Positions 2,415-22,400 of a DNA stretch of 64,000 nt are shown one piece after another. Source of the stretch: a phage; the sequence record PZ171033.1; one strand, given 5' to 3'. A program made the position numbers and the translations under genes. Position 1 is the stretch's first letter. Every line of letters starts with the position of its first letter. The notes beneath the pieces are model-generated. The model saw nothing but the letters and a program-made list of their open reading frames with translations. It was not told where the DNA came from and ran no database searches.

Positions 2415-3207
2415 CTTCACTGGCAAGAAAATTGACAACGTAGTCAAAGCCGGGAGTTCATCAGGTTATGATGGGCACAGTCTTCGTGCATATGCTTACT
2501 TCGGTGAGCAGATGCCAGACATAGAAGACACGGTAGAATCCATTAACTCCATTCAGCATAAGTACAAATCATTACGTAGTGACTCGAAGGCTCCAACCTT
2601 CTTGCTTACCTATGGTGGTACGTATATGGGCTTAATGAAAAACTGTGGCTTCTCTGAAGAGAAGGCTAAAACTACAGAGAAGCGTTATCACGACCTCTAT
2701 GTAGTTAGTGACAGGTGGGTTCAGGCTAAGCTAGACGAAGCTGCCAAAACTGGTTATGTTACTGCCGCATTCGGTTTGAGAGTGCGTACTCCTTTACTGG
2801 CTCAGGTTTTACGTGGGACATGCAAGACTCCGTATGAAGCAGAAGCAGAAGGCAGAACTGCTGGTAATGCTTTAGGACAAAGCTGGTGTCTACTGAATAA
2901 CCGTGCTGGTTCAGAATTTATGCGTAAAGTCAGAGCCAGTGAGTTCAGGTTAGATATTCGTCCTAGTATTCACATTCATGATGCTCAGTACTTCATGATT
3001 CGTGACAACATGGATACCTTACAGTTTACGAACAAGCACTTGGTTGAAGCCGTTAACTGGCAAGATCATCCTGATATTGCCCATCCAGAAGTTGGTTTGG
3101 GTGGGGAACTATCCTTGTTCTACCCAACGTGGGCTAATGAGATTGAAATTCCAAATCACGCTACCCCAGAAGAAGTTCATCAAATAATTCAAAAGGCATT
3201 CGCATGA
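2377..3207 (+). CDS. DNA polymerase, family A, C-terminal part (motifs B and C)
   Basis: YDGHSLRA (DIH-like), motif B RSDSKAPTFLLTYGG, motif C IHIHDAQYF; ATG 2377 with AGGAG 11 nt upstream, but may instead be a spliced exon beginning near 2466. Confidence 0.8.
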   Translation: MLLYDSLPKSTHDFTGKKIDNVVKAGSSSGYDGHSLRAYAYFGEQMPDIEDTVESINSIQHKYKSLRSDSKAPTFLLTYGGTYMGLMKNCGFSEEKAKTTEKRYHDLYVVSDRWVQAKLDEAAKTGYVTAAFGLRVRTPLLAQVLRGTCKTPYEAEAEGRTAGNALGQSWCLLNNRAGSEFMRKVRASEFRLDIRPSIHIHDAQYFMIRDNMDTLQFTNKHLVEAVNWQDHPDIAHPEVGLGGELSLFYPTWANEIEIPNHATPEEVHQIIQKAFA

Positions 3208-3509
3208 CCAAAAGTACTAAAGAAACTGTAGTCAGAAAATATCATTGGATGGTAGCAGCACAGGTAGTATTCCAACTTCCTAAAGTGGATGATGGTTCCC
3301 TGCTTACCATGAACACAATGCTGCTCACTGATGAACCTTATGTGACCTATAAAGATTTGGCACGTGCCAATCACTCCCTGAAGATTAGTCTGGACCAACG
3401 CTTTGATACCTCGGTTGACCTGAAAGACATCGTTTATCTGTCTCTCAGCAACCTGGGTCTGATGTCTGAACCAGAGTTCCAGGCAAATATGATTCCTAAG
3501 GAGAAATAA
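3204..3509 (+). CDS. hypothetical protein
   Basis: Compact ORF with start overlapping upstream stop, in replication module. Confidence 0.5.
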   Translation: MTKSTKETVVRKYHWMVAAQVVFQLPKVDDGSLLTMNTMLLTDEPYVTYKDLARANHSLKISLDQRFDTSVDLKDIVYLSLSNLGLMSEPEFQANMIPKEK

Positions 3510-3793
3510 TGGCTAAGCTCTCCGGTGGATTGAATAACTGGTATGTAGTACCAGTTAAACACCCTCAACGGAAAGAGCAAGAGCCATATCAAGCAGAATG
3601 TGAGGATATTATCCAAGCACTGGGCATGACCTTCGATGAAGGTTGTGCCTTTAAAGCTTTATGGCGAAATGCTGCTGCCCGTATGGGTAATGGTAAACCT
3701 GGAAACTCTTCGGTGTACGACTCAGAGAAGATTGTGCACTATGCCAATCGCATATTGAAAAAGGCTTATAATGAAGATAACCAACAATCATGA
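3509..3793 (+). CDS. hypothetical protein
   Basis: ORF translationally coupled to neighbours. Confidence 0.5.
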   Translation: MAKLSGGLNNWYVVPVKHPQRKEQEPYQAECEDIIQALGMTFDEGCAFKALWRNAAARMGNGKPGNSSVYDSEKIVHYANRILKKAYNEDNQQS

Positions 3794-4751
3794 TGTCTCA
3801 CTGGCTCTGGCTGTATGGCTATTACATGATGAGTACGATTACGTAGACAATCCTAAGTATCTGTCTGTTACTACATTGCTTAAGCCCATTAAGCAAATCG
3901 TCATGAAGCATCGTGTAGATTTGAGTGACCAGTCAATTGATGTTATGGATTTCGTCTCAACATCAATGGGTACTGGTTTACATGACTCTATCGAGAAAGC
4001 CTGGAAGTTAGGTCATAAGACTGCATTGAAGAAGCTAGGTTATCCTCAGCGTGTAATTGATGCAGTAGTCATTAATCCAACCAAAGCAGACTTTGATACT
4101 AACCCTGACCTTATCCCAATCTACATTGAACAACGTGGAACCAGGGTAGTTAAGGGTTGGACTATCGGTGGTAAGTTCGACATCGTAACAGAAGGTCTAT
4201 TACAGGACTTTAAGTCTACCTCAACCTATTCCTGGGTTGCTGGTTCCCGTGATGATGAACACAAGATGCAAGGCAGCTTGTATCGTTGGATTCACAACGA
4301 CATCATTACTGAGGATGTAATTCGTATTAACTACATCTTCACTGACTTCATGAAGCACATGGCTAATAGCAATCCGAACTATCCTGCTAATCGTATTATG
4401 CATAAGGATATTCCACTGCTATCTGTCGATAAGACTGAACGTTGGGTAGAAGAGAAGATTCACCTCATTGAGAAGTACTGGAATGCACCTGAAGAGGAAA
4501 TTCCTGAGTGTACTGACGAGGAGTTGTGGCGAACAGAGCCACAGTTCAAATACTTCTCTGATGCTTCTAAGGTAGATGTACCTGGAGCCAGAAGTACCAA
4601 AAACTTTGACGATATGGCATCTGCTCGTATCTTCATGGCTGAAAAAGGTGGCAAGGGTGCTATCAAGGTCGTGGAGGGGCAGGTTAAGCGTTGTCTGTAC
4701 TGCCCTGTCGCATCCATTTGCAAACAAAGAGAGAGATATTTTCCATCATGA
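3771..4751 (+). CDS. PD-(D/E)XK nuclease with C-terminal Cys cluster (Cas4/RecB-like exonuclease)
   Basis: GKFDIVTEG...QDFK core motif; C-terminal C...CLYCPVASIC four-Cys cluster. Confidence 0.55.
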   Translation: MKITNNHDVSLALAVWLLHDEYDYVDNPKYLSVTTLLKPIKQIVMKHRVDLSDQSIDVMDFVSTSMGTGLHDSIEKAWKLGHKTALKKLGYPQRVIDAVVINPTKADFDTNPDLIPIYIEQRGTRVVKGWTIGGKFDIVTEGLLQDFKSTSTYSWVAGSRDDEHKMQGSLYRWIHNDIITEDVIRINYIFTDFMKHMANSNPNYPANRIMHKDIPLLSVDKTERWVEEKIHLIEKYWNAPEEEIPECTDEELWRTEPQFKYFSDASKVDVPGARSTKNFDDMASARIFMAEKGGKGAIKVVEGQVKRCLYCPVASICKQRERYFPS

Positions 4752-6901
4752 GTATTGACCTTACCGGAGTAGTGCATCATCCGGCGATTGAAGAAATCGT
4801 AGATGTGCTCTGCAATAAAACCCAGAATAATGACCGGGGATTTTTCCGTGTCGAAGTAGCCTACTTCTTGGCTAAAATGGCATCCTGCATGGGTGCAACC
4901 ATCGTAACTAAAGATCGTGGTGACCTGCCGGTAAACATCTACGCTATAGCGTTGGCTACATCTGGTTTCGGTAAAGGTCACTCAGTAAATATCATTGAAG
5001 ACGGGTTCATGACTGGCTTCCGTAAACGCTTTATGGAAGACACCATGCCCGTCATTGCAAATGATCGTTTATGGAAGATTGCTAACGAACGTGCTGCTCG
5101 TCAAGGTACAGACCAGAATGATGAGTTTGATAAAGTCGAAGCAGAATATAAACGTGCTGGAGCATATCCGTTTACGTTTGACTCCGGTACTCCACCAGCA
5201 GTTAAGCAACTACGGCATAAACTGTTAATGGCTGGATGTGGTTCAATCAACCTTCAGATTGATGAAATTGGTTCAAACCTGTTGGCTAACACAGATGTAT
5301 TAACCCTGTTCCTGGAGCTGTATGACCAGGGTAAGGTTAAGCAGAAACTAACCAAAAATACTGCTGAAAGTGTTCGTGGTGAAGAACTGGATGGTAAAAC
5401 TCCAGCTAACCTGTTGCTGTTTGGTACACCAAGTAAGCTACTAGATGGTGGTCAGACCGAAGATCAGTTCTATGACTTCCTTGATACAGGGTATGCACGT
5501 CGTTGTCTATTTGCCATTGGGCACTTAGACAAACGAGCACATGCAACAATGTCTCCGGAAGAAATCTACCGTAACCTGATTAAGCAGGATAACGTACAGT
5601 CTCTGGGTAAGTGGGCTAACCACTTCCATAGTCTGGCTGACCCAAACCTGTTTGGCTTTAAGATGGTTGTAGAAGATGCTGTGGGTATTGCTCTGATTAC
5701 TTACAAAATTGATTGTGAGAAACAAGCAGAAGCTATGGCTGACCACGAAGAAATTCGTAAAGCTGAAATTTCCCACCGTTACTTCAAAGCACTTAAACTG
5801 GCTGGAGCACTGGCGTTTGTTGACCAGAGTTCATTCATTGAAATGTCCCACCTTAAACAAGCAATCTTGCTTGTAGAGGAATCCGGGGCAGCATTCCAGG
5901 GTATTCTCAATCGTGAGAAAGCCTATGTGAAGCTGGCTAAGTATATCGCTTCTGTAGGTAAAGAAGTGACTCATGCTGACTTGCTAGAGTCATTGCCGTT
6001 CTATAAGAGTGGCAATGCAGCTCGTAATGAGATGATGACCCTTGCTACAGCATGGGGCTACAAACAGCACATCATCATTAAGAAAACCTTCAATGAAGGT
6101 ATTGAGTTCTTCCGTGGTGAAACTCTGAAAGAAACTGACATCAATGAGATGATAGTGGCATATAGTGATAGCTTTGCTTATGACTACATTGGTGAACGTG
6201 TACCGTTCGACCAGTTGCATGTATTAACCCAAGCTCCCGGTATGCACTGGGTAAACCATCACATGAAGAATGGACATCGTTCTGAAGAGAACGTTATTCC
6301 AGGATTTAACATGATTGTTATCGACTGTGATGGTGGAGTACCACTGCATACGTGCCATGAACTGATGAAGGAATATAAGTTCATGACTTATACCACTAAG
6401 CGTCATTCTGATGAACAGAATCGCTTCCGTCTGATTATTCCAATGAACTATGAGTTACACCTCGATACTGAGGAATACAAAGAGTTCATGAATAACGTTA
6501 TGTCCTGGCTACCATTCGAAACGGATGAATCTGCTAACCAACGAGCCAAGAAGTGGATGTCCTGCGAGACTGGTTCCTATCATTACAATCTTGAAGCAAA
6601 TCTGTTGGACGTGCGTGACTTTATTCCTCGTACTAGTAAGAACGAGCAGTTCCAGAACCAGATGAAGGAAGTACAGTCGTTGGATAATCTGGAGCGTTGG
6701 TTCGCTAGTCGTATTGCTACCGGTAATCGTAATAATCAAATGATTAAGTACGCACTGGCATTGGTTGACAGTGGTTGGGATTTTGCCCAAGTACAGCAAG
6801 CCGTCCACTCATTCAATAAGAAACTGGCTAATCCATTGCCGGATGATGAATTGAATGCAACCGTAATGGTCACCGTGGCTAAACGCTTTGCTGGTAAGTA
6901 A
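4748..6901 (+). CDS. putative DNA primase / replication initiation protein
   Basis: 718-aa ORF with AGAGAG RBS; C-terminal region resembles primase C-terminal / D5-N-like domains; position between nuclease and SSB. Confidence 0.45.
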   Translation: MSIDLTGVVHHPAIEEIVDVLCNKTQNNDRGFFRVEVAYFLAKMASCMGATIVTKDRGDLPVNIYAIALATSGFGKGHSVNIIEDGFMTGFRKRFMEDTMPVIANDRLWKIANERAARQGTDQNDEFDKVEAEYKRAGAYPFTFDSGTPPAVKQLRHKLLMAGCGSINLQIDEIGSNLLANTDVLTLFLELYDQGKVKQKLTKNTAESVRGEELDGKTPANLLLFGTPSKLLDGGQTEDQFYDFLDTGYARRCLFAIGHLDKRAHATMSPEEIYRNLIKQDNVQSLGKWANHFHSLADPNLFGFKMVVEDAVGIALITYKIDCEKQAEAMADHEEIRKAEISHRYFKALKLAGALAFVDQSSFIEMSHLKQAILLVEESGAAFQGILNREKAYVKLAKYIASVGKEVTHADLLESLPFYKSGNAARNEMMTLATAWGYKQHIIIKKTFNEGIEFFRGETLKETDINEMIVAYSDSFAYDYIGERVPFDQLHVLTQAPGMHWVNHHMKNGHRSEENVIPGFNMIVIDCDGGVPLHTCHELMKEYKFMTYTTKRHSDEQNRFRLIIPMNYELHLDTEEYKEFMNNVMSWLPFETDESANQRAKKWMSCETGSYHYNLEANLLDVRDFIPRTSKNEQFQNQMKEVQSLDNLERWFASRIATGNRNNQMIKYALALVDSGWDFAQVQQAVHSFNKKLANPLPDDELNATVMVTVAKRFAGK

Positions 6902-7749: not shown

Positions 7750-8553
7750 ATGTCATTGTTCAGTAATCTGAAAGAAAAAACCAAAAACGTTGAAGCTGCT
7801 AAAGACTCCCTGGGTGGGGGTGGTTTCGGTGCAAAAGAAACCGATATCTACACCGGTAATGTAAAAGTAGCTTACGTAGGTAAAGCTGACTCTGGTGCAG
7901 ACTGGATGCAGTTAATCATTGATGACTTGAAGAACTCTGATGGCGTACCTGCCGGTGAGTTCCGTGCACAGGTGTACTTCACTTCTGGTAATGCTAAAGG
8001 CAACAAGCCGACTTACGAGAAGAACGGTAAAGAATACTTCCTGCCTGGCTACACTGTCATTAATGACATGATGCTGATGGCTACTGGTACTGAACTGCCT
8101 GAAGCAGACTTCGAAGAAAAGATTGTTAAAGTCTATGACTTCGATGCTAAAGCGGAAGTTAATAAATCAGTCATGGTTCCAGTTGATCTGTTAAACCAGA
8201 CTGTTACCTTCGCTCTGGAAAAAGTTCTGGAATCCAAGCAGGTTAAAGGCGACAACGGTTATGTTGACTCCGGTGAAACCCGTGAAGTAAACGAGATTCA
8301 GAAAGTGTTTCACCCGGAACTGCTGGTCACAGTCGTCGAGGCTCAGGAAGCAGAGAAGGCTGAAAAAGAACTGACCCCAGAACTGGCTGTATTCTATGCA
8401 GCATGGCTGGAAAAGAACAAAGGCAAGACTCGTGACAAGACCAAGAGTTCTGCCGGTGGTAATGGTAAAGGTGGCTTGCCTCCTAAACCAGGTGCAGGTG
8501 CTGGCACGGGTACTGCTCCTGCTGGTGGTAAATCACTGTTCGGTAAACGTTAA
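7750..8553 (+). CDS. single-stranded DNA-binding protein-like
   Basis: 267 aa, size and position match N4 SSB; Gly-rich N- and C-terminal tails; call by synteny, not by motif. Confidence 0.4.
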   Translation: MSLFSNLKEKTKNVEAAKDSLGGGGFGAKETDIYTGNVKVAYVGKADSGADWMQLIIDDLKNSDGVPAGEFRAQVYFTSGNAKGNKPTYEKNGKEYFLPGYTVINDMMLMATGTELPEADFEEKIVKVYDFDAKAEVNKSVMVPVDLLNQTVTFALEKVLESKQVKGDNGYVDSGETREVNEIQKVFHPELLVTVVEAQEAEKAEKELTPELAVFYAAWLEKNKGKTRDKTKSSAGGNGKGGLPPKPGAGAGTGTAPAGGKSLFGKR

Positions 8554-9107
8554 TGAAAATCCCAATTGTCGGTGCAGACATTAGTCTCCGCAATTGGGGT
8601 TTAGCTCGTGGGATGCTGGACATTGAGTCCGGCGTCTTCGAGCAGGTCGAACTTAAACTGGTTCAAACTGAAGTTGACCACAACAAACAAGTTCGAACCA
8701 ACTCCAAAGATATACAAGCCGCTCACGATTTGTTTCTTGGTTGTGAGGAATGGTTACGGTCTGCTAAAGCAGTGTTCGTAGAAGTACCAGTAGGCTCTCA
8801 GTCTGCTAACGGTATGAAATCCTATGGTGTATGCATAGGATTAATCGGTGCATTTCATGCATTGGGTTGTCCAATCTTTGAAGTATCCCCAATTGAAAAC
8901 AAACTTGCACTGGTCGGTGATAAAACTGCATCCAAAGACACGATGATCCGTGCTGCTCATGCCATCTATCCCGAAGCCAACTGGCTCACGGATAAGAAAG
9001 GCAAACTTCTGAATAAGAATGAGCACTTAGCAGATGCAATCGGTGCAATCCATGCTGGTGTAAATCTCCCAGCTTTCCAGAACCTCATTAAGTTATTAAA
9101 GGCGTAA
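8553..9107 (+). CDS. RuvC-like Holliday junction resolvase
   Basis: N-terminal IVGADIS and C-terminal HLADAIGAIHAG resemble RuvC catalytic motifs; ATG overlaps upstream stop. Confidence 0.5.
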   Translation: MKIPIVGADISLRNWGLARGMLDIESGVFEQVELKLVQTEVDHNKQVRTNSKDIQAAHDLFLGCEEWLRSAKAVFVEVPVGSQSANGMKSYGVCIGLIGAFHALGCPIFEVSPIENKLALVGDKTASKDTMIRAAHAIYPEANWLTDKKGKLLNKNEHLADAIGAIHAGVNLPAFQNLIKLLKA

Positions 9108-9108
9108 T

Positions 9109-9561
9109 ATGCAAATCATTTTGAACCAGTCCGAAGTAGAAGCTGCTGTACAGGCTTATGTTGATGATCAAATCAATCTTGCTGGTGACATTAATATTGT
9201 CATCAATGCAGATGGTACTGCCTCCGTTGGTATCAACGAAGAGGTGAGTCATGAAGATGACACTCCACCCTTGGTAGAGAAGAAAACTCGTCGTTCCCGT
9301 AAAAACCCCCAAGAAGCTAAGCATCGTCCGGTAGAACCGGAGCCAGAAGAAGTAGTTGAAGAGGCAAAGGTAGAAGAAACCCAGACCTCTACTGGTGGTC
9401 CGAACGGGAATTCTACGCCGGAACCTGAAGAAGCAGTAGCTGAACCAGAAGCACAAGAAGAAGTTGTGCAGGAAGAGGATATGAAAGAAGACCGTGAGCT
9501 TCCTCCGGAAGAACGACCGGTAACGAAGCCTTCACTGTTCGCTGGCCTTAAACGTAGTTAA
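9109..9561 (+). CDS. hypothetical acidic, Pro/Glu-rich low-complexity protein
   Basis: ORF with strongly acidic PEPEEVVEE-type repeats. Confidence 0.45.
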   Translation: MQIILNQSEVEAAVQAYVDDQINLAGDINIVINADGTASVGINEEVSHEDDTPPLVEKKTRRSRKNPQEAKHRPVEPEPEEVVEEAKVEETQTSTGGPNGNSTPEPEEAVAEPEAQEEVVQEEDMKEDRELPPEERPVTKPSLFAGLKRS

Positions 9562-10282
9562 TCTGGTAGGTGGCTCAGAAGCTGCTGCTATTTGTGGTAG
9601 TGTTCGTAATTCTGATGCTATTGCTTATCAGGATTCTGGACGTGTCGGCTCCATACATAGCATTTATCATCACTGTACTTATACTTTGGAAACTCAGTGA
9701 TAAAAACGGTGGTGACAAGCCGCCAGAGTAACAACAACAACCGAACCAGTGGACTTTAATACTCTCCGAAGTCCACAGGTTCAATCTAAACTAAGCGGAA
9801 AAGTTAGCTTTTTCTTGGGTGTAGAACCTGTTGAAGGAAACAAAGAATTTCACATTGAATAGTTAATATCGTAAAGGGTTCTGTTAGAATCCTTTGAGAT
9901 AGGAACTCCTATCATAACTATTCTTAACTTAATCTTTGCCGTATGGCACTGACGCTAGGGGTGGCCCCCCATCCGTCAGGTAGACTATTTTAAGAATGGG
10001 TTATCACAGCAAATGTAAAGCAACATTCGGGTTAATCAATGGCCTCTCCCTATAGGGGCCATTTCTGAATCTTAGGCTATATCCCAAAGGTTAGTATCTT
10101 TGGGATAAGGCTTCAGATCTCTTATCAACTAACGCTCATGTTGAGCATTCTACTCACACAAGCCCCTATATGGGCTGGGTTAAATGTCGGATAGCATAGC
10201 TACCTACAGCATCGAGATGTTAGGTCTTACATGTAATATAGGGTATAAAGGGAGGACTCGTCCCCTCCCTCCTATTATAATG

Positions 10283-10352
10283 GTCGGGGTAGCACGTAGG
10301 CATGTGCGGATGGTCGCTACTTCCCTCGCTGGTTCGAATCCAGCCCCCGACT
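10283..10352 (+). tRNA. tRNA-like gene (possible pseudo-tRNA)
   Basis: 7-bp acceptor GTCGGGG/CCCCGAC, U8A9, D-arm GCAC-GTAGGCAT-GTGC, T-arm GCTGG-TTCGAAT-CCAGC; anticodon arm imperfect by eye. Confidence 0.4.
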
Positions 10353-10903
10353 TACTGACATCCTATCAATGAGTACATTAGGCTAACGTGCGGAGGTTTA
10401 CACTGTAGCCGGTGTAGGTGGAGAAGACGGCAGGGTAGCTACCTGTGCTTAGTGTACTCTTTGATAGTTTTCGTAAGCGATTATGCGGTTTTTTAGAAAC
10501 GAACCAATAACATAAATGCAAACGATGATGTTGTTCTGATGGCGGCGTAATAGCCTGTAAGTCAGCAAGGTCTTCCGACTCCTTGTAAGCAAATTCGGCG
10601 CAGTGGCCCGCTGTGATTAATAATGGGCACACAACAGGTAAGAGCATTTAGGCTACTGAGAAATCATCCGAGGCAATCAGACCTATCTTCTGTTAAGTGC
10701 TCTTTCCGTTGTGGTGAATGCGCAGGCTGATGCGCAGTGGGACGTGGCTGACTCACGAGGATGGCTCAAGCGAATAAGCAAGCTCGACGCCGCCGAATAA
10801 GCGCCTTATGCCGGAGATCAGCACCGGCCACCACAACAAGTCCAGACGATATCTGAGTGACTATAAAAACAGATGGAGCCAGGTGGAATCCCTGGCAACT
10901 AAT

Positions 10904-10969
10904 TCCGGTGTAGGTACTAGTGTCGTGCACGGCATGAGCATTCTGGTTCGAGTCCAGACGCCGGAACCA
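10904..10969 (+). tRNA. short tRNA-like module ending in encoded CCA
   Basis: T-arm TCTGG-TTCGAGT-CCAGA, acceptor TCCGGTG/CGCCGGA, discriminator A plus CCA; too short for a canonical tRNA. Confidence 0.3.
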
Positions 10970-10971
10970 AT

Positions 10972-11095
10972 TATCAGTTGCACGAGATGGCTTGACATGT
11001 TCAAGTTTGGACTAAGTGTGACACCGCTAGATTGGAGGGCTGCTGCGGTAAGCTATAGACTCCAACCGGAGGTTCGAATCCTTCACTGATAACCA
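10972..11095 (+). ncRNA. oversized tRNA-like RNA (124 nt) ending in encoded CCA
   Basis: Acceptor TATCAGT (10972) pairs with ACTGATA (11085) right after T-arm GGAGG-TTCGAAT-CCTTC; ~50 nt of extra internal sequence. Confidence 0.3.
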
Positions 11096-11177
11096 ATTCA
11101 AAGTAGCATTGCACTAACCCATCCCGGAGTTCAAAGGCCAAACATGGAGCAGTGCTACTCTGAATTAGAAGAATTAT

Positions 11178-11287
11178 GGTGGGTCTGGTGAAGTAGATAG
11201 GGTTCGATTCCCTCCGGTAGAGTAATCTACTAGCGTGCTTGGTGCACGAATAAGACTTAATACTGGTGGTTCAATTCCATCCCCCAC
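11178..11287 (+). ncRNA. oversized tRNA-like RNA (~110 nt)
   Basis: T-arm GGTGG-TTCAATT-CCATC followed by CCCCACT pairing with GGTGGG at 11178; contains a second internal GGTTCGATTCC T-loop-like motif. Confidence 0.25.
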
Positions 11288-11732
11288 TGCCTATTTGAGG
11301 TGTAACAGTTAAATCCAGTTGCCGGAAGTGCTATTCTAGATACGCTGCCAATGTGTGAACGGTAAGGCTGTACAGGACTCGGACTCCCACCTCAAACCAA
11401 AGTCGCCAGATACTTATGGCAAACGGGTAGTAACGAACTAGTCATTCGTCAAACGCCCACCCTATTATGAGTCAGCAAGAACGCCTTCATTTAAACTTAA
11501 ACAAAAAAGCTTAACGCAATAATTATGTAGGGGTATGTAAGGATTGCGAAGAAGGAGCCAGTTAAAGTCTGGCATGACTCACCTAATTGAGGCTGTACTT
11601 ATGTTCTACAGTAGGTGCACAACACTGGGCTGCTACACCCAGAGGTACAGCCTCACCCTATTATGGGTAGCCTATACTAGTTATAGGGCAGATAATCTGT
11701 GGCAGTGTAAGGCTGCACTACCCTTTCATTAA

Positions 11733-11808
11733 TACCCGGTAGGCTTAGTGGTAAAGCCCCACTAGTAAACCAACTAGGACGCAGGTTCGAATCCTGTCCG
11801 GGTAGCCA
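11733..11808 (+). tRNA. tRNA-like gene with encoded CCA
   Basis: Acceptor TACCCGG/CCGGGTA, U8A9, D-arm GGCT-TAGTGGTAA-AGCC, T-arm GCAGG-TTCGAAT-CCTGT, G then CCA; anticodon arm atypical (6-nt loop by eye). Confidence 0.5.
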
Positions 11809-11813
11809 TTTAT

Positions 11814-11898
11814 GCCCACTTAGCTCAGTGGTAGAGCGCAGGAAAGCTTCGAGAGAACAAGGTGTCTGTGGTCACTGGTTCAAATCCAGTAGTGGGTA
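11814..11898 (+). tRNA. tRNA-like gene, long-arm (class II-like) length
   Basis: Canonical D-arm GCTCAGTGGTAGAGC, T-arm ACTGG-TTCAAAT-CCAGT, acceptor GCCCACT/AGTGGGT; 36-nt anticodon/variable region does not fold canonically by eye. Confidence 0.45.
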
Positions 11899-12213
11899 CT
11901 TATTTGCTGCAATATTCCCATAGGGAATGGTGTCGTATACGCCACCTAGTTTCTGGTGAAACTCCAGATGCAGCAATCCATTCAGCAGTAACATAGTCCT
12001 GATTGCATTGCACTCTAAAGACAACACTGGTAAGACAGTCCAGTGGCTGCTATTGTATTGTTATTCCCCTCGACGGGAATTTCGCTAGTGAAGGTAACAC
12101 TTAAAAATCCAAACCCACGTCTTACTGCTATCGGGCTATCAACCCACAGTCGCTTAACACACTAGTGGTAGTAGTTTGACGACCTAGCCTCGTTAGCTGC
12201 GTTAAAGCTACTA

Positions 12214-12249
12214 AGTCCCCTAGAGGGGCGGCTCTAGGGGACTTTTTTA
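12214..12249 (+). terminator. rho-independent terminator
   Basis: 12-bp stem AGTCCCCTAGAG/CTCTAGGGGACT then TTTTTTATTT. Confidence 0.7.
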
Positions 12250-12250
12250 T

Positions 12251-12436
12251 TTGAGTATTAATAGCCGGATAATCAATATGATTGACCTAATCTCAACCCC
12301 GTATGCCTATGAGGTAACGGACAACCGAGGGCATAAGTACTTGGTATTTGCAGGTAGCGTAGCCTATAACAACGCAGTCATGTTTAAGTACAAACTCAAA
12401 CCACTCTATGAGGCTAATAATGGCAACAGTAAGTAA
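12251..12436 (+). CDS. hypothetical protein
   Basis: 61-aa ORF immediately after terminator 12214-12249. Confidence 0.4.
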   Translation: MSINSRIINMIDLISTPYAYEVTDNRGHKYLVFAGSVAYNNAVMFKYKLKPLYEANNGNSK

Positions 12437-12800
12437 AGAAGCAATCGAAGCTAAGATTAAGAGCGTCTACTATTTCAATGGAGCGGATGCAGTGAAGTCT
12501 GCATTCGTTGACCCATCTGCACTACCGGCAGATGATTTGGCTAACCTGGGTCTGGTAACCTATTGTGTAATCATTCTGGAAAACAACTTTAAAGTTGAAG
12601 GTGTATCTGCTTGCGTAGACCCAACTATCTATGATGAACAGAAGGGTCGTCAATATGCATATGAAAATGCATTCAATAAGATTTGGGAATTAGAGGGTTA
12701 CCTACTACGTCAGGCACTGCACGAGAAAGAAGAGACTGCTAAAGCTCTGGCTTCCTTTGCAGAAAACAATACCTGTGATGGTGGTGGTTGTACAATCTGA
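12408..12800 (+). CDS. phage gp49-like family protein
   Basis: ~130 aa; position just upstream of the virion RNAP gene matches N4 gp49; motif YCVIILENNFKVEGVSACVDPTIYDEQKGRQYAYENAF. Confidence 0.45.
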   Translation: MRLIMATVSKEAIEAKIKSVYYFNGADAVKSAFVDPSALPADDLANLGLVTYCVIILENNFKVEGVSACVDPTIYDEQKGRQYAYENAFNKIWELEGYLLRQALHEKEETAKALASFAENNTCDGGGCTI

Positions 12801-12882
12801 TCCAAAGGTGTAAGGTAGTTTTTACCGAAAGGTACTGAACTACCCGACAAAGTAGTAAGGCTCTAGAAGCCGAAACAAAACA

Positions 12883-12910
12883 AGCCCTCCTAGCGAGGGC
12901 TTTATCATTT
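12883..12910 (+). terminator. rho-independent terminator
   Basis: GCCCTC-CTAGC-GAGGGC then TTTATCATTT. Confidence 0.55.
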
Positions 12911-12919
12911 GAGGTAGTT

Positions 12920-13411
12920 ATGTCAGAAGAAATTAAAGTCCATTTCACCAACTACATTGGAACCAAGTGTGTAAATGGATTCCGGATGAACAAGGAAACA
13001 TATTGCAAACTCCGTGGCTGGGATGTGCCTGCTAATGAAGACCCATTAGAAGTAGGTTACTTAGTAGAATACCCAGATTCTAAACCTAACCATGAACAAT
13101 TCCGTGGTTATATTAGCTGGTCACCAAGGGCTGCATTTGAAGCTGCATATTGTGATGTAGATAAGGGTTGTACTTTTGGTCACGCAGTAGAACTTATAAA
13201 ACTGGGTCACAGACTGACCCGTAAAGGCTGGAACGGTAAGGGAATGTATATTACCCTAGTATCTGGTGAAAATTGGGCTATGGATAAACATGAGAATACC
13301 GTATGTGAGAAACGGGATTGGTTGGGCATCAAAACTGTTGATGACCAGTTTATGCCTTGGGTTCCTTCCCAATCGGATGTATTAGCTGAAGATTGGGTAT
13401 TAGCTCAGTAA
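12920..13411 (+). CDS. DUF2829-like protein (possible Tad2-type anti-defence sponge) with N-terminal extension
   Basis: C-terminal HAVELIKLGHRLTRKGWNGKGMY...WVPSQSDVLAEDWVL resembles the DUF2829 signature; GAGG RBS; terminator follows. Confidence 0.4.
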   Translation: MSEEIKVHFTNYIGTKCVNGFRMNKETYCKLRGWDVPANEDPLEVGYLVEYPDSKPNHEQFRGYISWSPRAAFEAAYCDVDKGCTFGHAVELIKLGHRLTRKGWNGKGMYITLVSGENWAMDKHENTVCEKRDWLGIKTVDDQFMPWVPSQSDVLAEDWVLAQ

Positions 13412-13417
13412 GAATTA

Positions 13418-13448
13418 AAGCCCCTCATTTGAGGGGCTTTTTTATTTT
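13418..13448. terminator. bidirectional terminator between convergent genes
   Basis: AAGCCCCTC-ATTT-GAGGGGCTT then TTTTTATTTT; A-rich on the other side. Confidence 0.7.
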
Positions 13449-16400
13449 AGTTTATCAGGTTCATCCAAGGGTTCAGGTTGTGAGCACGTAAGCCTTGACC
13501 GAAACCGAAGGAGTAACCAAGATTGCCCTGTGCAGCAATACTAAAGATGTTGTCCTGAATAGGCAGGCCAACGTTACCAAACATGGTAGGGGTTGGGGCC
13601 AACATAGCCATAGCAGCATGAACTGGGTTATTACGAATCATGGACACTGCAACTTTTGCAGAACGAATCTTAAAGTTGTAGAACCACATCAGACCAACAC
13701 TTTCCATATACCCACGGAAACGACCTGGCAGACGATCATAGTTAATAAACTCTTCCGTTACACGTCCTAGTGCTTCTTCGCGAGTCTTACCTTTACGCTG
13801 AGTTAATTCATCATAGATGATTGCTTTAGCAATAAAGTCAGAGTACTCAACCGTCTTCTGGATACCCTGGAACAAAGCAGTATCCTTAGTGATAAGTGCA
13901 TAACGACCAGCATTACGTACAGACTTAGGCAGCTTATCAGCCAACTTATCCATGTACTCGTGAAGTTTACCTTCAGTAATCAGGATGTCGTCACGACCAA
14001 TACCAGCGTCTGCAATTGAAGAGAACTCACCTGCTTCTAACAGGGGCCAGATACTCAAACGCTTATGACTATCAGAGATGGACTGAATCTCAGCCTTAAG
14101 TTTACGAATCTGGTTCGGGTTAGTAGCTGCACGTAATTCTGCTTCTGCATCTACCTGACGCAGACGAGATTTCAGATACTGGTTAATCTCAGCAGTTTTC
14201 TGTGGAATGCTCTTAGCAATGTTCTTAACAGGTACACCACGAGCAACCATCTGGTAAAGGTTAGCCAGGAAGTTAACAGCAGGTACGACTACTGACTTAA
14301 CTACAATCAGGGTCTTAGCTTCTTTAACTAAATTCTGAACCAGGTTCTCACCACCCATTACGTATTTATAGGCACGGTTACCGAAGACACCCAACATAGC
14401 TTTCTTGAAGGTATCCAGTGTTTCTTGGGACCAACGAGAGTTACCAGACCAGGCATCACCAACAGAAGCTGCACGATAGCCGAGAGCATCATTGAGCATG
14501 TCACGACGTACCCACAGCTCACCAGGACCAAACAGACTTTCTGCTTTCTGACGTGTTTCACTATTCATCAGCTTAAGTGCATCGGCAGTTACTGGGTCCA
14601 GTTTAGAACCAAGAAGGTTAACGTACTGGGACTTATTAGAAGCAGACATCTTAATGTCGTTCTCATACATGCTATGCAGGTTCTCAATTAGCATATCGTT
14701 GAAACGCTGAGCCTTAGCCTCTTCTACCTGACGACCACGCCATACACCGATTGCACGAGCAAGATGGTTCTCACCCTCAATGTGCTTCAGCATGTTAGGG
14801 TCAATGGATTGCTCATAAGCAACCACATTACCATTGGCATCATATACAGGCAGAAGTGGTTCATTACCACGTTCACCACGAGCCAGTGCTTTAGTGATAC
14901 GATCTACAGAAGGCTTGTCAGTAATACGACCAGCTACCATGGTTCCCATAGTAAAGCCTGTACCAAGGTCCACACCACCAGCAGTATTGCGAACGTTCTG
15001 TAAGATACCCTGTGAGAATGGGGCCTGTGCCTGTACTGGTGCGAAGTAGTAGCTACGAGCAGGACCACGATTAGCAGAGCTACCCTGATATGTACCCAGT
15101 CGTACATAGGATTTCTCAATCAAATCAGCAAACTGACTATCTTCAGCAACAATCAGATTAACACCCTGTTTAGTCTCACTAGGGATATGCCCTTTGTACT
15201 GGTTCAGGGTTGCACGCATATCAGATTTGGCTTTAGCCATTTCATCTTTACGCTGACCAACCAGGTAAGAGGTGGCAAAGTCCATCCCATCAACTTCTGT
15301 CTGAGCCAGTGAAGATAACATCTCACGGTCGGACTTGTTCATTGCTTCCAGTGCATACAGGGTAATCAGTTTATCCAGTTGAGCTACATCTACAGTAGAG
15401 CGTGCAGCCTGACGTTCACCCAGCATACGGGAGATTGCAGTAGCATTACGCAGCAGGTTTTTACCGACAGTACCATTAATCATGTACTGAGCCAGTTGCT
15501 TAGATTTACGGTTAATCAGAGGCCAGTTACGACCAGCTTGTTTCTGCAAATCTGCTTCCAGCTTATTCACTTCACGGTCAACAATCTTCTGGTCAGTCAG
15601 TAAGTCACGGATTTCAGCCAGTGACATAGTGTCACGCAGGACAGCTAAATCTGTTTTACCCATACCAGTATGCATTACTTTCCACTCATCATTAGTCAGC
15701 TTACGGCTGAACTTAGATGCGATAGTAGTAGGCAGATGTTCACGGAACTGCTGACGGTCTGCCTGCACCTGTGCACGTACTGCTTTAATCAAATCGTATA
15801 CAGAAGCATTGCTCTTAGTACGACCGGTTAAGTCATTAACCAGGTCATGGAAAGGTTGCCATACCTTACCCTGGTTCATTGCAGCCATAACACCTTCAGC
15901 TACGATTGCACCATTCTTCTCTGTAGCAATAGCAGCTACCAGTTGTGCAGCATGAGCAGCACCTTTAACCAATGGATTATTGGTATTGGCTGCAACTTCA
16001 CGAGCACCTTCCAAAGCACGGGTAGATAGTACATCAATAGAATCCACCAGATACTGGTTAGCACGGTCAATAGCATTACCAGTAGGAGTAGCAACGGAAT
16101 CATAGAAGGATTCTGCATTAAGACTGGTCTGCATAATCGTCTGAGCCAGTGCATCCATACCTTCCTGTACGTTAGTAGCTTTAGTATCACCTGCTACACG
16201 AGCATTCAGACTAGCCATTGCAGCAGTACCAATGTTAGTCAGCATTGCATCAACGGTATTACCTGATTTCTTATCTGCTTTCATGACAGGAATGTCAGCC
16301 AGTACTTTACGTACTTCTTCACTTACCATTGCCAGACCAACAAAGGTAGGCAGTAAAGAAGATCGACCTTGTGCATCAAACTCAATGTTGTTAGCACCCA

Positions 16401-19400
16401 TGATGGTATCGAACTTCTGCTGTGCATAATAACGATCAGCAGGGTTAGTACTATCTGGGTCAGCCATAAATGCTTCGACGGTCAGATTCTTAGTAACATG
16501 CGTGTAGTATTCCTGTGCACGAGCCATAGCAGCAGGGTTAACAGCAGCCTCGGTAGCCAGTGCAGCAACAATATTGGTAAAGAGACGCTGTTCCTGCATA
16601 TTCATGGTGAAGCCATGAGCCTGAACATCACGAGTTACTTTAGTTGCATTTACTACTGCATCAGAGAACTTACCTTTGCGAATTACTTGCTGTACTGGTT
16701 CTGAACCAATGTAGTTAGTAATTAGCTTATCAAAGGTTTTCCCTAGCTCTTCCAGACGAGTATTTTCACCATACGCTTTGTTATGGAACAGAGTAGTATC
16801 TTTGGCTACAGCAGCAGTAGGAGCTTGCCCACGCATTACTACAGCAGAGTTAAACAGTAAGCCAGAGAACATATCTTCTGCATTAGCAGGAGCTTTCTTA
16901 CGTCCAAATACCAGACGTTTGATTGCTTCATATACAGCCTGAACCATAGTTTTAAGTGCAGTGGTTTTCTTCTGCTTACTAATCAGTTCTCGGTTGGTTA
17001 AACCCCAAGCCATGTACTCGTTCAGTGCAGCAGCTTTAGCCATTGCTGGTTCAATAAAGCCATTGGATAGGTGACCATTAATGGTATTCAGTGCATCAGC
17101 ATATGCTTCTCGTACTGCCGGAGATTCATCCCTAACATCCAGAGCACGGAACTGATTCATCAGGTCTTCGATGTTCTGGACTGCTTCATTAGGAGTGCCT
17201 TCATAGTGAGCCAGTACAGATTCAAAAGTAGAAGCATGTACCAATTCATGAACCAGAGTCTCTAAGGAAGGGGTAACTAAGTAGATGGTTTTATCTTCAA
17301 AGTTAGTCCAGCCGTATGCATTACCAGCTTCAGCAGCTTCAATATCTTCCGGTGCTGGGCGAGTAATGTTCTTCTCAATAGCATAGGCATCCAATTGAGC
17401 AGGTGTACCGTAAACAACTTTATAGTCTTTAGCAGCAAGGGATTTCTGTATTTCTTTCAATACTTCTTGCTGTTCAGGAGACATCTCTTTAGCCAGTTTA
17501 GTAATGGCAGTGTTAGACAGCAGACGTACACCAGACTTCAGTACACGACCAACCTGTTCCATCGCCGGTACTTCTTCCACTGGTTCTGCTTTAGTAGCAC
17601 GTACTGCTTCACGACGCTTATTTAATTCAGCATCAAACAGTTCGTTCAGCTTAGCTACTTGCTGGTCTACAGTAAGACCTTCCAGAGAGATTTTACCGTT
17701 GTTCACATAAGGAGCACCTACGGCAGCCATCTGGTCAACAGTGACTTGTACCTGGTCCATTACCTTGTGACGAATATCTACACCCAGAGCAATGTTACGC
17801 AGGTTACGTTCAATCTGCTCAGCACCGACACGTAACAGGTCATCAGTAGCACCCTCACGTTGGTCATACTCCAGAGCAGACTTAGCGATAGCCTGTTTGG
17901 TTTCATCAGACAGTTTACTGAAGTCTACGTTCTTCATGAACTTAGCGTAGGAGTCATAAACATTCTTGATAGGGTTACCCTGCCAGGAAGTATATACAGC
18001 CTCATTAGCTTTGCGACTTGCATCAGTGATGTCATTGATACCAATGTTCATACCATCAAAGATTTTCAGGGTATTCTTCGGAGCACCTTTCATAGTAGAA
18101 AGTGTCTGCATCATCATGCCATCACCAGTACCGATGGTCATAAATGGAATACCTGCAACACCTGCCTGTGAAGGAGCATAAATGCTCATTGGCACACGCA
18201 TACGGTCATCTAAGTTAGTAGCCAGTACTTGGTTAGCAACATCAGTATTCTCACTACCAGCAATGTAGAAAGTCTGTGAACCAGTCTCAATCATTGGAGC
18301 CAGTGAAGATAATGATTCCTGGATTTCATTCAGTTCTTTCTGCGTTAAGAAATCACCTTTCTTCCAGGTTGGGTCTTTTTCTTTTTCTGCCAGCTTAGCC
18401 TGTACTGCTTGCTGGAACATATCCTGCAATACCAGAGATTGAATCTGGGTAGCCTTCTGCAAGTTCTCGGTAGAGTGCATCAGACCTTCACCAACAGTAT
18501 TACGGATACCAGTACGCATTGGTTCAACGAACAGGTGGAGCATGTTCTCTTGTAAGTTCTTCAGGGCATTACCGGATACGGTAAATTTCTGGGGGTCTAA
18601 CTTACCAGTCAGAGCACCATCTACTTGCTGAATAGACAACTCACCTTTACGCATAACTGGAACATTACCAGTCAGTGCTTCCATAGAAGTAAGGAAAGTA
18701 TCCAACATAGCCTGAGCATCAGCTTCAGACGCAGCCTCCTTACCAAACATTGCCATAGCTGGGGAAATGCTAGGGTCAGCAGCTCGTGCTTGCAGAACGT
18801 CACTGAAGCGTTCGTAGATGGTATCAGTAATTGCACTGACCATCTTGCCAGCAATACCACGAGCACCAGAACCATAGATGGTAATGGTCAGTGGGTTTTT
18901 AGCAATACCACGTTTCAGGTCCAGAGTACCGTCTTCATTCAGGTTAAAGTCTTTAATGAACAAGTCCATTAACTTCTGGAGATGATTCATCTGGCTCATA
19001 ACTGGAACGTTGTTACGGTAAGTAGTACGTAACTCATTCAGTGCTTGTTGAAGACCATTGGTAGATGCTTCATACAAGTCAACATTATCGTCGATAGAAC
19101 AATGTTCGTTCATCGTTTTACCAGCACGACCAAAGAACAAACCACCTTTGGCAGTGTTCTTAATCCAGTCTGGAGTGAACTTACCACCAGTCATTAATAC
19201 CATTGCGTTGATTGGGCCGTTGGTTACACCATCAGCTTCAACGTACAGTGGAGTAGTAAAATTAGCACGGTCATCACTGTTCAGGTAACGGGCATATTCC
19301 ATCAGAGCCATGAGAGCTACGAAGGATTTATCACTACCCAGAGAGGTCTTCAGGATGTCTACTGCATCTGTCGGTAAGTGACCAGACTTATCAAACTCAA

Positions 19401-22400
19401 CCATCATATCAACAGCAGGTTTCAGTTTACCTTCCAGAGCTTTAGTTAACTCTTCAGACATAACTTCACGGGACATTTTATGTACCTTGATGCCTAATGC
19501 CTGAGCCAGACCTAACTGGAAGTCAGAGAACGCTTGGCTGTTTTCATTACTCAAGTCGATAGTAGAGAAGGTTGGTAGGATTGCTTCACGAACCAGCTTA
19601 CTGGATTGTGGGTTGTTCTTACCAAGCATCTGCATACGACCTACACGGGTCATGTTATAACCGTAGTGGATAGGTGTATCCAGACCATTCTCTTGTTCTC
19701 GTATCTGATTAATTACACCGAACAGAGAATCATATGCCATAGACACGGACAGGTTTTTACCTTCCAAAGATTTAGCAGTGTTCGCGTTCAGTAATTCTGG
19801 ATTAAGAGTACCAGCACCCATCAGTTCCAGAATGTTGTCACGCCCCAATGCTTCATAGAAGTTAACCATTGGCATATGTACACGGAACTCGGTAGCCTGT
19901 TCAGCTTTCAGTGCAGCCTTCTGTTCAGGGGTATTCTTAACAGCAGGGTTACGCAACTGAGTCTGAGCCACAGAAGGAATGTCATCACCAAAGTACATTT
20001 TCTCTTCTGGTTCTAAGAGGACAGCTTCCTCAATAGCAGTAGGGAATTTATTAATGGCATCATTGTCATCCAACTTCTCAATGGTATACAGACCAACAGT
20101 CTTATTGGAGTCTGGGTCAATCTCAGACACATCCAACATAGACTCTTTAACTTCACCCATCTCAATGAGAGAAGACAGAATCTCTGTAGCCATTGCCATT
20201 GGGATACCTTTGGTATAACCCAGCGGTGCATTAGGATTACGATTCAAACCCCAGTAGGATTCAATCTTCTGAGCCAGTGAGTTAGTAGCTTCAACCAGGG
20301 TCTGGGCATTCTCGAACTCAGCCAGAATACCTTCTGGTAACAGAGATGCTTCTACGCCTGTAATAGCAGCTACGTCTTTCATATCTTTAATGGCAGCATT
20401 CTGTGTAGTAGTCAGTCGCCATTGCAAACCAGCAAGCACAGCAGTCTCTAACAACTGGTCGTTGAACTTAAAGGTATCCCCATCTTGTTCAACTATATTC
20501 AGCAGTTTGCCACCTACCCAACGGTTAGCTTCAGTACCTTCTGCAAAACGTTTACCAACGTTCTTATTAGCAAGGAACTTAGCCAGACGTTCAGACAAAG
20601 TAGTCTTCAGAGTTTCACCAAAGTCCATTAAGTCCTGATAACGCTTAATCACATCACTAGTGAGAGCGTTATTTTCTTTTTGAGTGAATGCCTCAAAGCG
20701 AGCAGCAGAAGACAGTGCTTGCTTAATATCAGTCAAAGGAGATTCTGAACCAATGGTACGGGACTTAGGTTCTTCCGGTAAGGTAAATGCTTTCAGGAAC
20801 TGGTTCGGTGTCTTTTCATTGTTATAGACAGGGAACACTGTTTCCATTTCTGTTTTGGTTTCAGCTACTTCCTGGATGGTATCCTCATTCTTGAGAATAG
20901 CATCTACTGTTTCAGGCTTAGTAGTAGAGACTTCTTCTGTTTTTGGACTAGTCTCCTTAGTAGGAGCAGTCTTATTTTCTACCACAGGTTTAGCTTTAGG
21001 CTGTACAGTAGTAGTGTCCTCTTGCACTGGTGCAGGAGATTCATCAACCTGATTCACTGGTTCATTAGTCTGTTGAGACTGAGTGGCATCAAGACCACCT
21101 TGACGGAACTCTTTAACTACCTGGGCAGCAGGCTTGTTCAGACGTGAATCCAACGAGGTAACTTTCACATGAGAAACATTAAGCTCCGGGTAAGCCGTAG
21201 CAAGTGCATTAGCAATATCAGCTACGGTTTTGGCTTCCAGTCCTACTTGCTGGGCAAACTTAACAGACTTGGTATCGTAAGGATTGACACCGAGGCCAGT
21301 ACGACTACGTACCCATTCACGGGAAGGCGAGAGAGCCTGATAATGAACAGACTTATTCTTATCCGCATTCCCCGAAATCAGATGCTCATTCAACGCTCCG
21401 ACCTTATTCTGCATGTGCTGGGCGAACTTCATAAAGTCGCTCAGATAAGCGGAGGCCAAATCGAAGTTACCAGAGTTATACGCAGAACGAATGCGTTTCG
21501 CATGTTGCAACGCAGAGTACTGTCCTTCATTAGAACGAGACTCGTCGGTTTTAATCTGTTTACTAACAATGTCTTGAGGACGTAAGCCTAGTTCTTCTGC
21601 TTTAGCGTCGAACTCACGTGCACCCTGTAACAAGGCAGCAGCAGATTGCAGGGCAGCACGTTGACGATTCCCCAGTGTAATCTTACCTTCACTTGCGTGC
21701 TTCAGAACCATGTTCACTGAATCTGCATCCAGTACTTCTGGAGACACATCAGCAGCCATAGCAATGTTGTTTGCTTGGGCTTGATTAGCTTCTTCAGTAG
21801 CTTTCAGCTTACCTGCTTCAGCCTGTTCCTGAATCATGGAATGGATGGCACGGAATGCACGGAGTACTTTAGGGGTATTCTGTACGTTAGCCATCAAGCC
21901 AGAGAACTGGTCTACGATTGTAGCAGCAGGAGAACCTTGTTCCAGATTAGCCAGAGCACCTGGGTCACGGTTAATGAAGCTATCCATAGACATGATGTTG
22001 TCATACATCTGGATTGCAGCTTCCATTTGAACGTTAGGGTCTTCAGCAGTATTAACCAGGTCAGCCATCTTCTGAATAGCTTCAACACGGTTAGTGGAAC
22101 CAGAAACAGCTTCACGGATTGCCGGGTTAGCTTGTTCCAATTCTACCGGGTCAAACTTCATTGCCTGAGTTAAGTCAGCAGCATACTGGGTAGCAGCAGC
22201 TTTCTCTTCTGGAGTGATGTCCATTGCATCCACTGCTTCTTGTACAGTTGCCTGTGCTTGTTCTGCCTGAGCAGCAGCTTCCTGTGCAGCAGCATTAACC
22301 GTAGCATCAGCTACAGGGGATGCTTGTTCATTACGCTTAGCAACTTCTTCACCACGTTGAATCAGGATGTTAGTAAGAGGGGATGCAGCTTTTGCTAATG

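Follow-up and report, generated by a model that had tools for sequence, protein, structure and literature searches.

Phages related to N4 carry an 'anti-signalling hotspot' between the primase-polymerase genes and the gene for the virion RNA polymerase (vRNAP), where genes for Tad2, Tad3, Acb4, Sequestin and the RuvC-like protein Bes1 have been described; the presence of Tad2 genes at this site was noted in a 2026 preprint (10.64898/2026.06.04.730250). Tad2 proteins are typically, though not obligatorily, single-domain proteins of ~90-100 aa, and different members of the family inhibit Thoeris types I, II and IV, or Pycsar. Ten residues of SPO1 Tad2 (W25, N26, I63, T65, D67, H71, W73, S76, T78 and D79) contact the ligand 1''-3' gcADPR or its waters (10.1101/2023.05.01.538930), and the cyclic-dinucleotide pocket of HgmTad2 is formed by an insertion of 35-41 residues after beta2 (10.1101/2023.11.15.567273). 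Here we describe a gene in a stretch of 64,000 nucleotides from a phage (sequence record PZ171033.1, hereafter the window), an open reading frame (ORF) at 12920..13411 that joins a Tad2-like domain to an additional N-terminal domain (hereafter the N-domain) and directly follows the gene of an Acb4 sponge. The window comes from a Gamaleyavirus/N4-like coliphage. Across 12200-13500 it shares 86-92% identity with G7C-like Escherichia phages, and ORF 12920..13411 is the orthologue of phage N4 gp49, with 143/159 residues identical (90%). The gene and its parts are as follows.

12911..12915, + strand: Shine-Dalgarno-like GAGGT, 4-5 nt 5' of the ATG, read from the sequence
12920..13411, + strand: two-domain ORF (N-domain plus Tad2-like domain), ATG start, 163 aa, stop codon included, from the ORF list
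12947..13159, + strand: N-terminal domain, aa ~10-80, beta-beta-alpha-beta-beta-alpha, homologous to the N-domain of RyR Tad (CB1 gp68)
13172..13402, + strand: Tad2-like (DUF2829) sponge domain, aa 85-161, from PF11195, PDB and Foldseek matches

We consider it probable that the Tad2 domain is a tetrameric sponge for signals derived from ADP-ribose (ADPR) by Toll/interleukin-1 receptor (TIR) proteins, co-expressed with the Acb4 sponge to blunt Thoeris as well as the cyclic-oligonucleotide-based antiphage signalling system (CBASS). Judging from solved Tad2 structures, four copies would assemble via helix alpha1 and the beta-sheet, and the pockets between protomers would sequester ADP-ribose-derived alarm molecules made by TIR proteins, with 3'cADPR (1''-3' gcADPR) as the candidate ligand and His-ADPR or N7-cADPR as further possibilities. 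The Thoeris effector would then stay inactive. The N-domain may serve as an accessory that holds protomers together two by two, and possibly also as a ligand-binding unit itself. The gene is the last on the strand of the replication genes, directly after the anti-CBASS Acb4 gene and presumably expressed together with it, and its transcription is predicted to end at a bidirectional terminator common to the vRNAP gene.

A Tad2-family domain with a conserved ligand pocket

A preliminary description of this DNA, made from the sequence alone, had pointed out that the C-terminal ~80 aa resemble DUF2829/Tad2, and this likeness was confirmed. Residues 85-161 of the product matched the Pfam family PF11195 'Tad2-like' with 82.7 bits, well above its cut-off of 25 (E 2.7e-23, profile positions 2-72/73). 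A phmmer search of the PDB returned ModTad2 (9EIB, E 8.5e-16), SPO1 Tad2 (8SME, E 2.3e-13), 8V3E and HgmTad2/AcrIIA7, with solved Tad2 chains overall at E 1e-13 to 1e-16; a significant DUF2829 hit was thus obtained on both counts (82.7 bits, phmmer E ~1e-15). The structure prediction that had been proposed as a check agreed with this assignment. An AlphaFold2 (AF2) model of the ORF product, built on 36 homologues, reached a mean predicted local distance difference test score (pLDDT) of 90, and all 24 Foldseek matches to it in the PDB at E <= 1e-3 were Tad2-family proteins (target TM-score <=0.86). The ORF list reproduced the limits 12920-13411 exactly, on the + strand and with 163 aa, of which the additional domain accounts for 83, and the C-terminal peptides quoted earlier were found in the product. 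The full-length product also matched phrog_872 in PHROGs (E 5e-65).

The ligand pocket of the canonical kind is conserved. In an HMMER alignment the ten SPO1 contacts correspond, in order, to W104, N105, I137, T139, D141, M145, W147, S150, S152 and D153, so that 8/10 are identical, with T78 changed to Ser and H71 to Met. W104, N105, T139, W147, S150 and D153 are invariant in 36/36 full-length homologues, D141 is kept in 30/36, and position 152 is Ser or Thr in 35/36. The C-terminal domain is a bona fide Tad2-family member with an intact canonical pocket, and the preferred signal of the predicted sponge cannot be called from such data. Ratios of nonsynonymous to synonymous substitution rates (dN/dS) were low in both halves of the protein, at 0.04 versus N4 and 0.12 versus Mimir124 for residues 1-83 and at 0.065 and 0.21, respectively, for residues 84-163. 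The ORF is therefore a real gene with both halves under purifying selection; on the minus strand inside it we found just a trivial ORF of 41 aa.

Some Tad2 proteins bind cGG/3'3'-cGAMP or cUMP/cCMP in a second pocket, which is found in HgmTad2, SptTad2 and MoTad2, and the domain could in principle mainly target cyclic (di)nucleotides of CBASS or Pycsar in this way, instead of Thoeris signals. We regard this as unlikely. The ORF product has no long insertion of the HgmTad2 type: its variable segment (aa ~113-133) is short, ~21-25 residues against the 35-41 in HgmTad2 and about as long as the short one of SPO1 Tad2, and within the protein it shows the lowest conservation, with 22% pairwise identity versus 68% in the Tad2 core. 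Moreover, the canonical gcADPR pocket is invariant, and a dedicated Acb4 sponge gene adjoins.

An anti-CRISPR of the AcrIIA7 type, binding tracrRNA, is suggested by two records that label homologues 'anti-CRISPR protein' (Mimir124 and Klebsiella phage phi1_146050), by a phmmer match to AcrIIA7 9kzr (E 5e-11) and by pdAcrIIA7, which has the same core fold and binds tracrRNA after removal of its head domain (PMC13133391). The labels are, however, automatic transfers, and the N-domain of the ORF product is beta-rich and unrelated to the helical pdAcrIIA7 head. To our knowledge, E. coli hosts have no Cas9/tracrRNA systems. Since Li et al. could not reproduce the Acr activity of HgmTad2/AcrIIA7 either (10.1101/2023.11.15.567273), we give this explanation very little credence.

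The N-terminal domain and its fusion partners

The preliminary description had also mentioned an extra N-terminal domain of ~80 aa containing cysteines. The domain itself is real: the N-terminal ~83 aa fold confidently, alone and in context (pLDDT 88-90), and beta1 (aa 10-13) is folded back in cis in the monomer model. Its cysteines, on the other hand, are not conserved, with 0/5 Cys positions of the ORF product kept among the 36 full-length homologues. A zinc- or Cys-based N-domain is ruled out, as all five positions vary. Instead, ~24/70 N-domain positions are >=90% conserved, and many of the conserved residues are aromatic or polar and located in loops (K16, R32, W34, E40, E50, D53, N57, S66, W67 and S68). 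The domain is net acidic, and its dN/dS is lower than that of the Tad2 domain in the comparisons with both N4 and Mimir124. It had no Pfam match, and a search of NCBIfam returned no matches. We also rejected the idea that the N-domain is itself a known sponge, given the missing Pfam match and the fact that Lockin is reported absent from INPHARED phage genomes, while the N-domain occurs in 122 phage records.

A structural relative was nevertheless found. A Foldseek search of BFVD with the N-domain returned a Yersinia phage 'RyR domain' protein, to which gp68 of Pectobacterium phage CB1 ('RyR Tad') is annotated as similar, and hhalign aligned aa 8-79 of the N-domain profile with aa 3-67 of CB1 gp68 (95.4% probability, E 1.7e-8). 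The gp68 crystal structure gave no match in the PDB copy searched. In that crystal, the gp68 N-domain is a domain-swapped dimer in which beta1 completes the five-stranded sheet of the partner; residues 1-86 on their own showed no activity against type I Thoeris, and the RyR-like C-domain alone was sufficient for inhibition (10.64898/2026.06.04.730250). As the sole structural evidence, gp68 favours a role of the N-domain as a strand-swapped dimerising accessory, which by analogy would apply to the window's protein as well. The RGWxLPxDE and N57 motifs, which hardly vary in the window's family, are however missing from the gp68 N-domain. Because of this divergence, and because only one defence system was tested, the negative result with gp68 1-86 is not decisive for the canonical domain.

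The first clue to a wider distribution came from PHROGs, where phrog_872 represents the full two-domain protein and phrog_9467 an N-domain joined to an Acb4-like domain. A word-indexed protein search with the N-domain alone gave only 2 matches but revealed an N-domain-Sequestin fusion. In an exhaustive search of 1.84 billion cluster representatives, a profile built from 24 N-domains matched 2772 proteins with E <= 1e-3, of which 1322 had E <= 1e-10. Partner domains were counted in the best 150 of the 2772 representatives, and the architectures of the same set were assigned with per-domain local hidden Markov models; single-linkage clustering of the partner regions was uninformative, as multidomain chains drew all of them into one cluster.

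Partner (Pfam), Tad2-like PF11195: 51/150
Partner (Pfam), PF21825, Sequestin sponge (10.1101/2025.07.12.664507): 40/150
Partner (Pfam), Acb4 PF13876: 15/150
Partner (Pfam), Acb2/Tad1 hairpin PF24729: 3/150
Architecture, N-Tad2: 36/150
Architecture, N + partner of unknown family: ~36/150
Architecture, N-Sequestin: 24/150
Architecture, N alone: 7-8/150
Architecture, N-Acb4: 7/150

The query profile was built almost entirely from Tad2 fusions and the counts are thus biased towards Tad2; despite this bias, the majority of N-domain matches have partners other than Tad2. The best 150 also included the chains Acb4-N-Sequestin, Sequestin-N-Sequestin and Tad2-N-Tad2. RyR and Lockin seeds gave no matches in the best 150, those fusions lying outside this set. 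The N-domain can further be traced in published tables. The accessible part of Table S1 of Tal et al. holds at least 148 matches to the 'SWSP' motif, N-domain-PF21825 proteins among them, Table S4 (Lockin homologues) holds two divergent N-domain copies fused to Lockin, and 52 motif matches occur among 1,331 published Acb4 homologues, Clostridium entries included. The N-domain is thus present in these supplementary tables but unremarked, and as far as the searched literature shows, its systematic association with six sponge families is unreported. Overall, the N-domain is a recurrent module on many sponge families rather than one defined by its cysteines, with ~2,770 cluster representatives and with Tad2, Sequestin, Acb4, the Acb2/Tad1 hairpin, Lockin and RyR Tad as partners.

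In three other genera of Schitoviridae, the N-domain is found inside triple fusions adjoining terminase genes. The order of domains varies, being N-Acb4-Sequestin in inbricus and Acb4-N-Sequestin in Philippe and RHph_X3_15, and the genes lie directly upstream of the terminase genes (L008 2492..3190, L009 955..1638 and L010 2168..2926 for the three phages, respectively). This terminase-adjoining site is a second anti-defence location in N4-like genomes. Partners without a Pfam family were observed in Rhodoferax phage P26218_06 (L003 2510..3055) and in ~36 of the proteins P0123-P0271, where they measure 44-129 aa. By fusion logic, such partners are candidates for new anti-signalling domains.

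As the main rival reading, it is conceivable, if somewhat doubtful, that the N-domain itself binds a different immune signal and that the protein blocks two signalling defences, which would be compatible with a Tad2 sponge. The architecture would parallel the Acb4-Tad2, Tad2-Sequestin and Acb4-Sequestin fusions, and Sequestin was found as a sponge by the identical guilt-by-fusion logic. The range of partners among the best 150, the bead-on-a-string chains of variable order (N-Acb4-Sequestin, Acb4-N-Sequestin), the fusions to Lockin (the two entries of Table S4) and to the RyR Tad domain, the occurrence of the N-domain alone, its conserved loop residues and its low dN/dS all speak for such a role. 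Against it stand the negative result of the sole test of a homologous domain (gp68 1-86 against type I Thoeris, a divergent homologue and one system) and the net acidic character of the N-domain, as pockets of known sponges are usually positively charged. Another explanation is that the N-domain is a protein-interaction module of the Tudor/SH3 type, which would bind no small molecule and would attach the sponge to a protein of the host or of the phage, for instance a defence sensor or RNA polymerase. Between phages of Firmicutes and those of Proteobacteria the N-domain hardly differs, which fits a universal small ligand or self-association better than a protein target specific to the host, and we judge docking of this kind to be quite improbable.

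Several points weigh against the favoured combination of a Tad2 sponge for Thoeris signals with an accessory N-domain. With regard to the ligand, the water-coordinating SPO1 H71 is M145 here (V, M or I in the family) and SPO1 T78 is replaced by Ser (S152). Type I Thoeris is not inhibited by some members of the Tad2 family, and the best PDB match, ModTad2, acts specifically on type II Thoeris. With regard to the architecture, we found in the literature no assay of any combination of N-domain and Tad2 and no functional study of N4 gp49, and none of the assayed Tad2 or Sequestin homologues in the literature examined has the N-domain. The Tad2 homologues listed in Table S2 of Hadary et al. are likewise without the N-domain motif, those shown being 87-98 aa long. 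Furthermore, the N-domain leads straight into helix alpha1, the element through which SPO1 Tad2 forms its tetramer, and the unrelated N-terminal 'head' domain of pdAcrIIA7 is auto-inhibitory (PMC13133391), so an N-terminal extension could modulate activity instead of supporting it. Finally, the role of a pure dimeriser fits poorly with stand-alone N-domain ORFs, with N-domains placed between two domains that already self-oligomerise, and with a constraint stronger than that on the sponge domain. Together with the variable position in the chain, these features argue that the N-domain has an activity of its own.

Gene neighbourhood and transcription signals

The proposed co-expression of the Tad2 sponge with Acb4 concerns the surroundings of the gene. 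The preliminary description had correctly placed it beside the virion RNAP gene, a minus-strand ORF of 3456 aa. ORF 12920..13411 is, however, not isolated but paired with an Acb4 sponge gene, and both lie in the described N4-like anti-signalling hotspot. The neighbouring features are as follows.

4691..6901, upstream: primase
7750..8553, upstream: SSB
8553..9107, upstream: RuvC-like protein (phrog_159, E 6e-42)
9109..9561, upstream: 150-aa protein of unknown function (phrog_7641)
12408..12800, + strand: Acb4-family (PF13876) cyclic-nucleotide sponge gene, 130 aa, positional orthologue of N4 gp48
12882..12902, + strand: terminator-like hairpin, 8 bp, weak T tail (TATCATTT), in the 119-bp spacer that separates the ORF from the Acb4 gene
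13417..13440, no strand assigned: bidirectional intrinsic-terminator hairpin, 10 bp, T-rich tails on both strands
13447..23817, - strand: convergent vRNAP gene, 3456 aa, N4 and Mimir124 counterparts annotated vRNAP, right boundary of the hotspot

The order in the window, the same as in the described hotspot, is primase, AAA_24, SSB, RuvC-like, then Acb4, ORF 12920..13411 and vRNAP. Also upstream are a DNA polymerase A gene into which an HNH endonuclease ORF intervenes, the gene of an exonuclease, that of the AAA_24 protein and a tRNA-bearing stretch. The product of 12408..12800 matched PF13876 with 89 bits (cut-off 27) and is 46% identical to N4 gp48 over 126 aa; a PDB sequence search with it gave no match. 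PF13876 corresponds to the Acb4 family, whose members are cyclic-nucleotide sponges (10.1101/2024.12.30.630793), and N4 gp48 is listed among the published Acb4 homologues. In the Panoptes study, N4 gp48 is named Acb4, its expression activates Panoptes, and its knock-down restores N4 infectivity (PMC12657230). The Acb4 neighbours are 46% identical (window 12408..12800 versus N4, L001 2127..2498) while the adjoining gp49 orthologues are 90% identical, and this contrast in sequence suggests either an allele replacement or a much faster evolution of the anti-CBASS sponge. A conserved C-x-GGGC-x-I tail ends both Acb4 copies and was also seen in a metagenomic homologue.

As had been described, hairpins exist on both sides of the ORF, although the upstream one (12882-12902) has a weak tail and the downstream one (13417-13440) is common to the vRNAP gene. 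The latter is a typical shared terminator of convergent genes, here ORF 12920..13411 and vRNAP, and the former is probably leaky. Terminator-like sites numbered 7 in 1.7 kb versus 1.2 expected. In N4, gp48 and gp49 abut, and the 119-bp spacer and the upstream hairpin are absent. Given the poor T tail of the upstream hairpin and the lack of a spacer in N4, transcription likely reads through from the Acb4 gene into ORF 12920..13411, as far as such signals can be judged from the letters. We found no sigma-70 promoter in the 119-bp spacer with a tool that does not cover N4-type middle promoters.

The same gene pair was found in the unrelated P22-like phage IME10, with the order N-domain-Tad2 then Acb4, between lysis and terminase genes. 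There (L004), the N-domain-Tad2 gene spans 2525..3025 (166 aa) and the Acb4-like gene 3317..3697 (126 aa), between Rz and terminase, and the GenBank record of IME10 has no coding sequence annotated at the pair. In other lineages, the N-domain-Tad2 gene occupies unrelated positions, as is often the case for accessory genes.

Further observations were made upstream of the pair. The RuvC-like gene and the gene for the 150-aa protein directly follow SSB; in Pseudomonas phage Ab09 this place is taken by Bes1 (RuvC-like) and Bes2, its 'broad evasion of signalling' genes. An HNH endonuclease ORF (phrog_59, E 7e-36) divides the family-A DNA polymerase into two ORFs, the three together spanning 8..1897, 1800..2414 and 2377..3207, in what looks like the insertion of a homing endonuclease. 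The region 9600..12250 comprises ~2.7 kb without long ORFs. Rfam detected tRNAs in it at 11733-11805 and 11814-11898; ARAGORN gave the first an abnormal two-base anticodon, missed the second and placed at 10282-10353 a tRNA-Ala(cgc) for which Rfam gives no match at gathering score. At 12213-12244 there is a strong hairpin of 13 bp with a T tract. A 61-aa ORF (12251..12436; phrog_34266, E 2.6e-22), annotated in Mimir124, shares 29 nt with the beginning of the Acb4 gene.

Significance and comparison with known systems

The Tad2 identification is correct, but it was already available: in RefSeq, N4 gp49 and orthologues go by the name 'DUF2829 domain-containing protein'. Judged as a Tad2 homologue, the gene is nothing unusual; with it a textbook lineage, the N4 and G7C-like coliphages, joins the carriers of Tad2, and these phages carry an adjoining pair of an anti-CBASS and a predicted anti-Thoeris gene. 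The useful lead is the N-domain, a compact unit of ~75 aa that is more constrained than the sponge domain attached to it, has no known activity or database family, and is linked to at least six sponge families across phages of Proteobacteria and Firmicutes. We tentatively consider that it may constitute an unrecognised family of phage immune-signal binders, or else a universal accessory usable by every sponge class. If so, N4 gp49 would be a two-target inhibitor, and the ~36/150 N-domain proteins with a partner of unknown family would hint at more sponge families yet to be discovered. It was fusion to known sponges that led to the discovery of Sequestin. The uncharacterised partners of the N-domain also form a ready list of candidate new anti-defence domains. 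The presence of the N-domain in the genetically tractable phage N4 makes its role directly testable.

Compared with known systems, the protein resembles the Acb4-Tad2 (Pasteurella phage Pm86), Tad2-Sequestin and Acb4-Sequestin (Ab09 gp59) fusions in that small oligomerising domains are strung together. In those fusions, however, every domain is a proven sponge, whereas the N-domain has no known activity. With pdAcrIIA7 (9KZR), which forms a tetramer, it shares a Tad2-fold core preceded by an N-terminal extension, but the pdAcrIIA7 extension is a 48-aa two-helix head that blocks tracrRNA binding and bears no relation to the beta-rich N-domain. RyR Tad (CB1 gp68) has a homologous N-domain followed by a sponge domain and lies in the same N4-like hotspot; in contrast to the window's protein, its C-terminal sponge is all-helical and RyR Repeat12-like, and the protein is a dimer. 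SPO1 Tad2 (gp34.65; 8SME/8SMF/8SMG) and ModTad2 (9EIB, 8V3E) are single-domain proteins of ~89 aa that lack the extra 83-aa N-terminal domain, but they align with residues 84-161 at 37-42% identity, keep the W-N-G loop and the W-x-x-S-x-[ST]-D ligand motif, and have the same predicted fold. The closest counterpart is N4 gp49 (ABK54417), whose gene abuts gp48 without a spacer or hairpin and whose Acb4 neighbour differs as described, but which is an orthologue over 159 aa and occupies the same place adjoining vRNAP.

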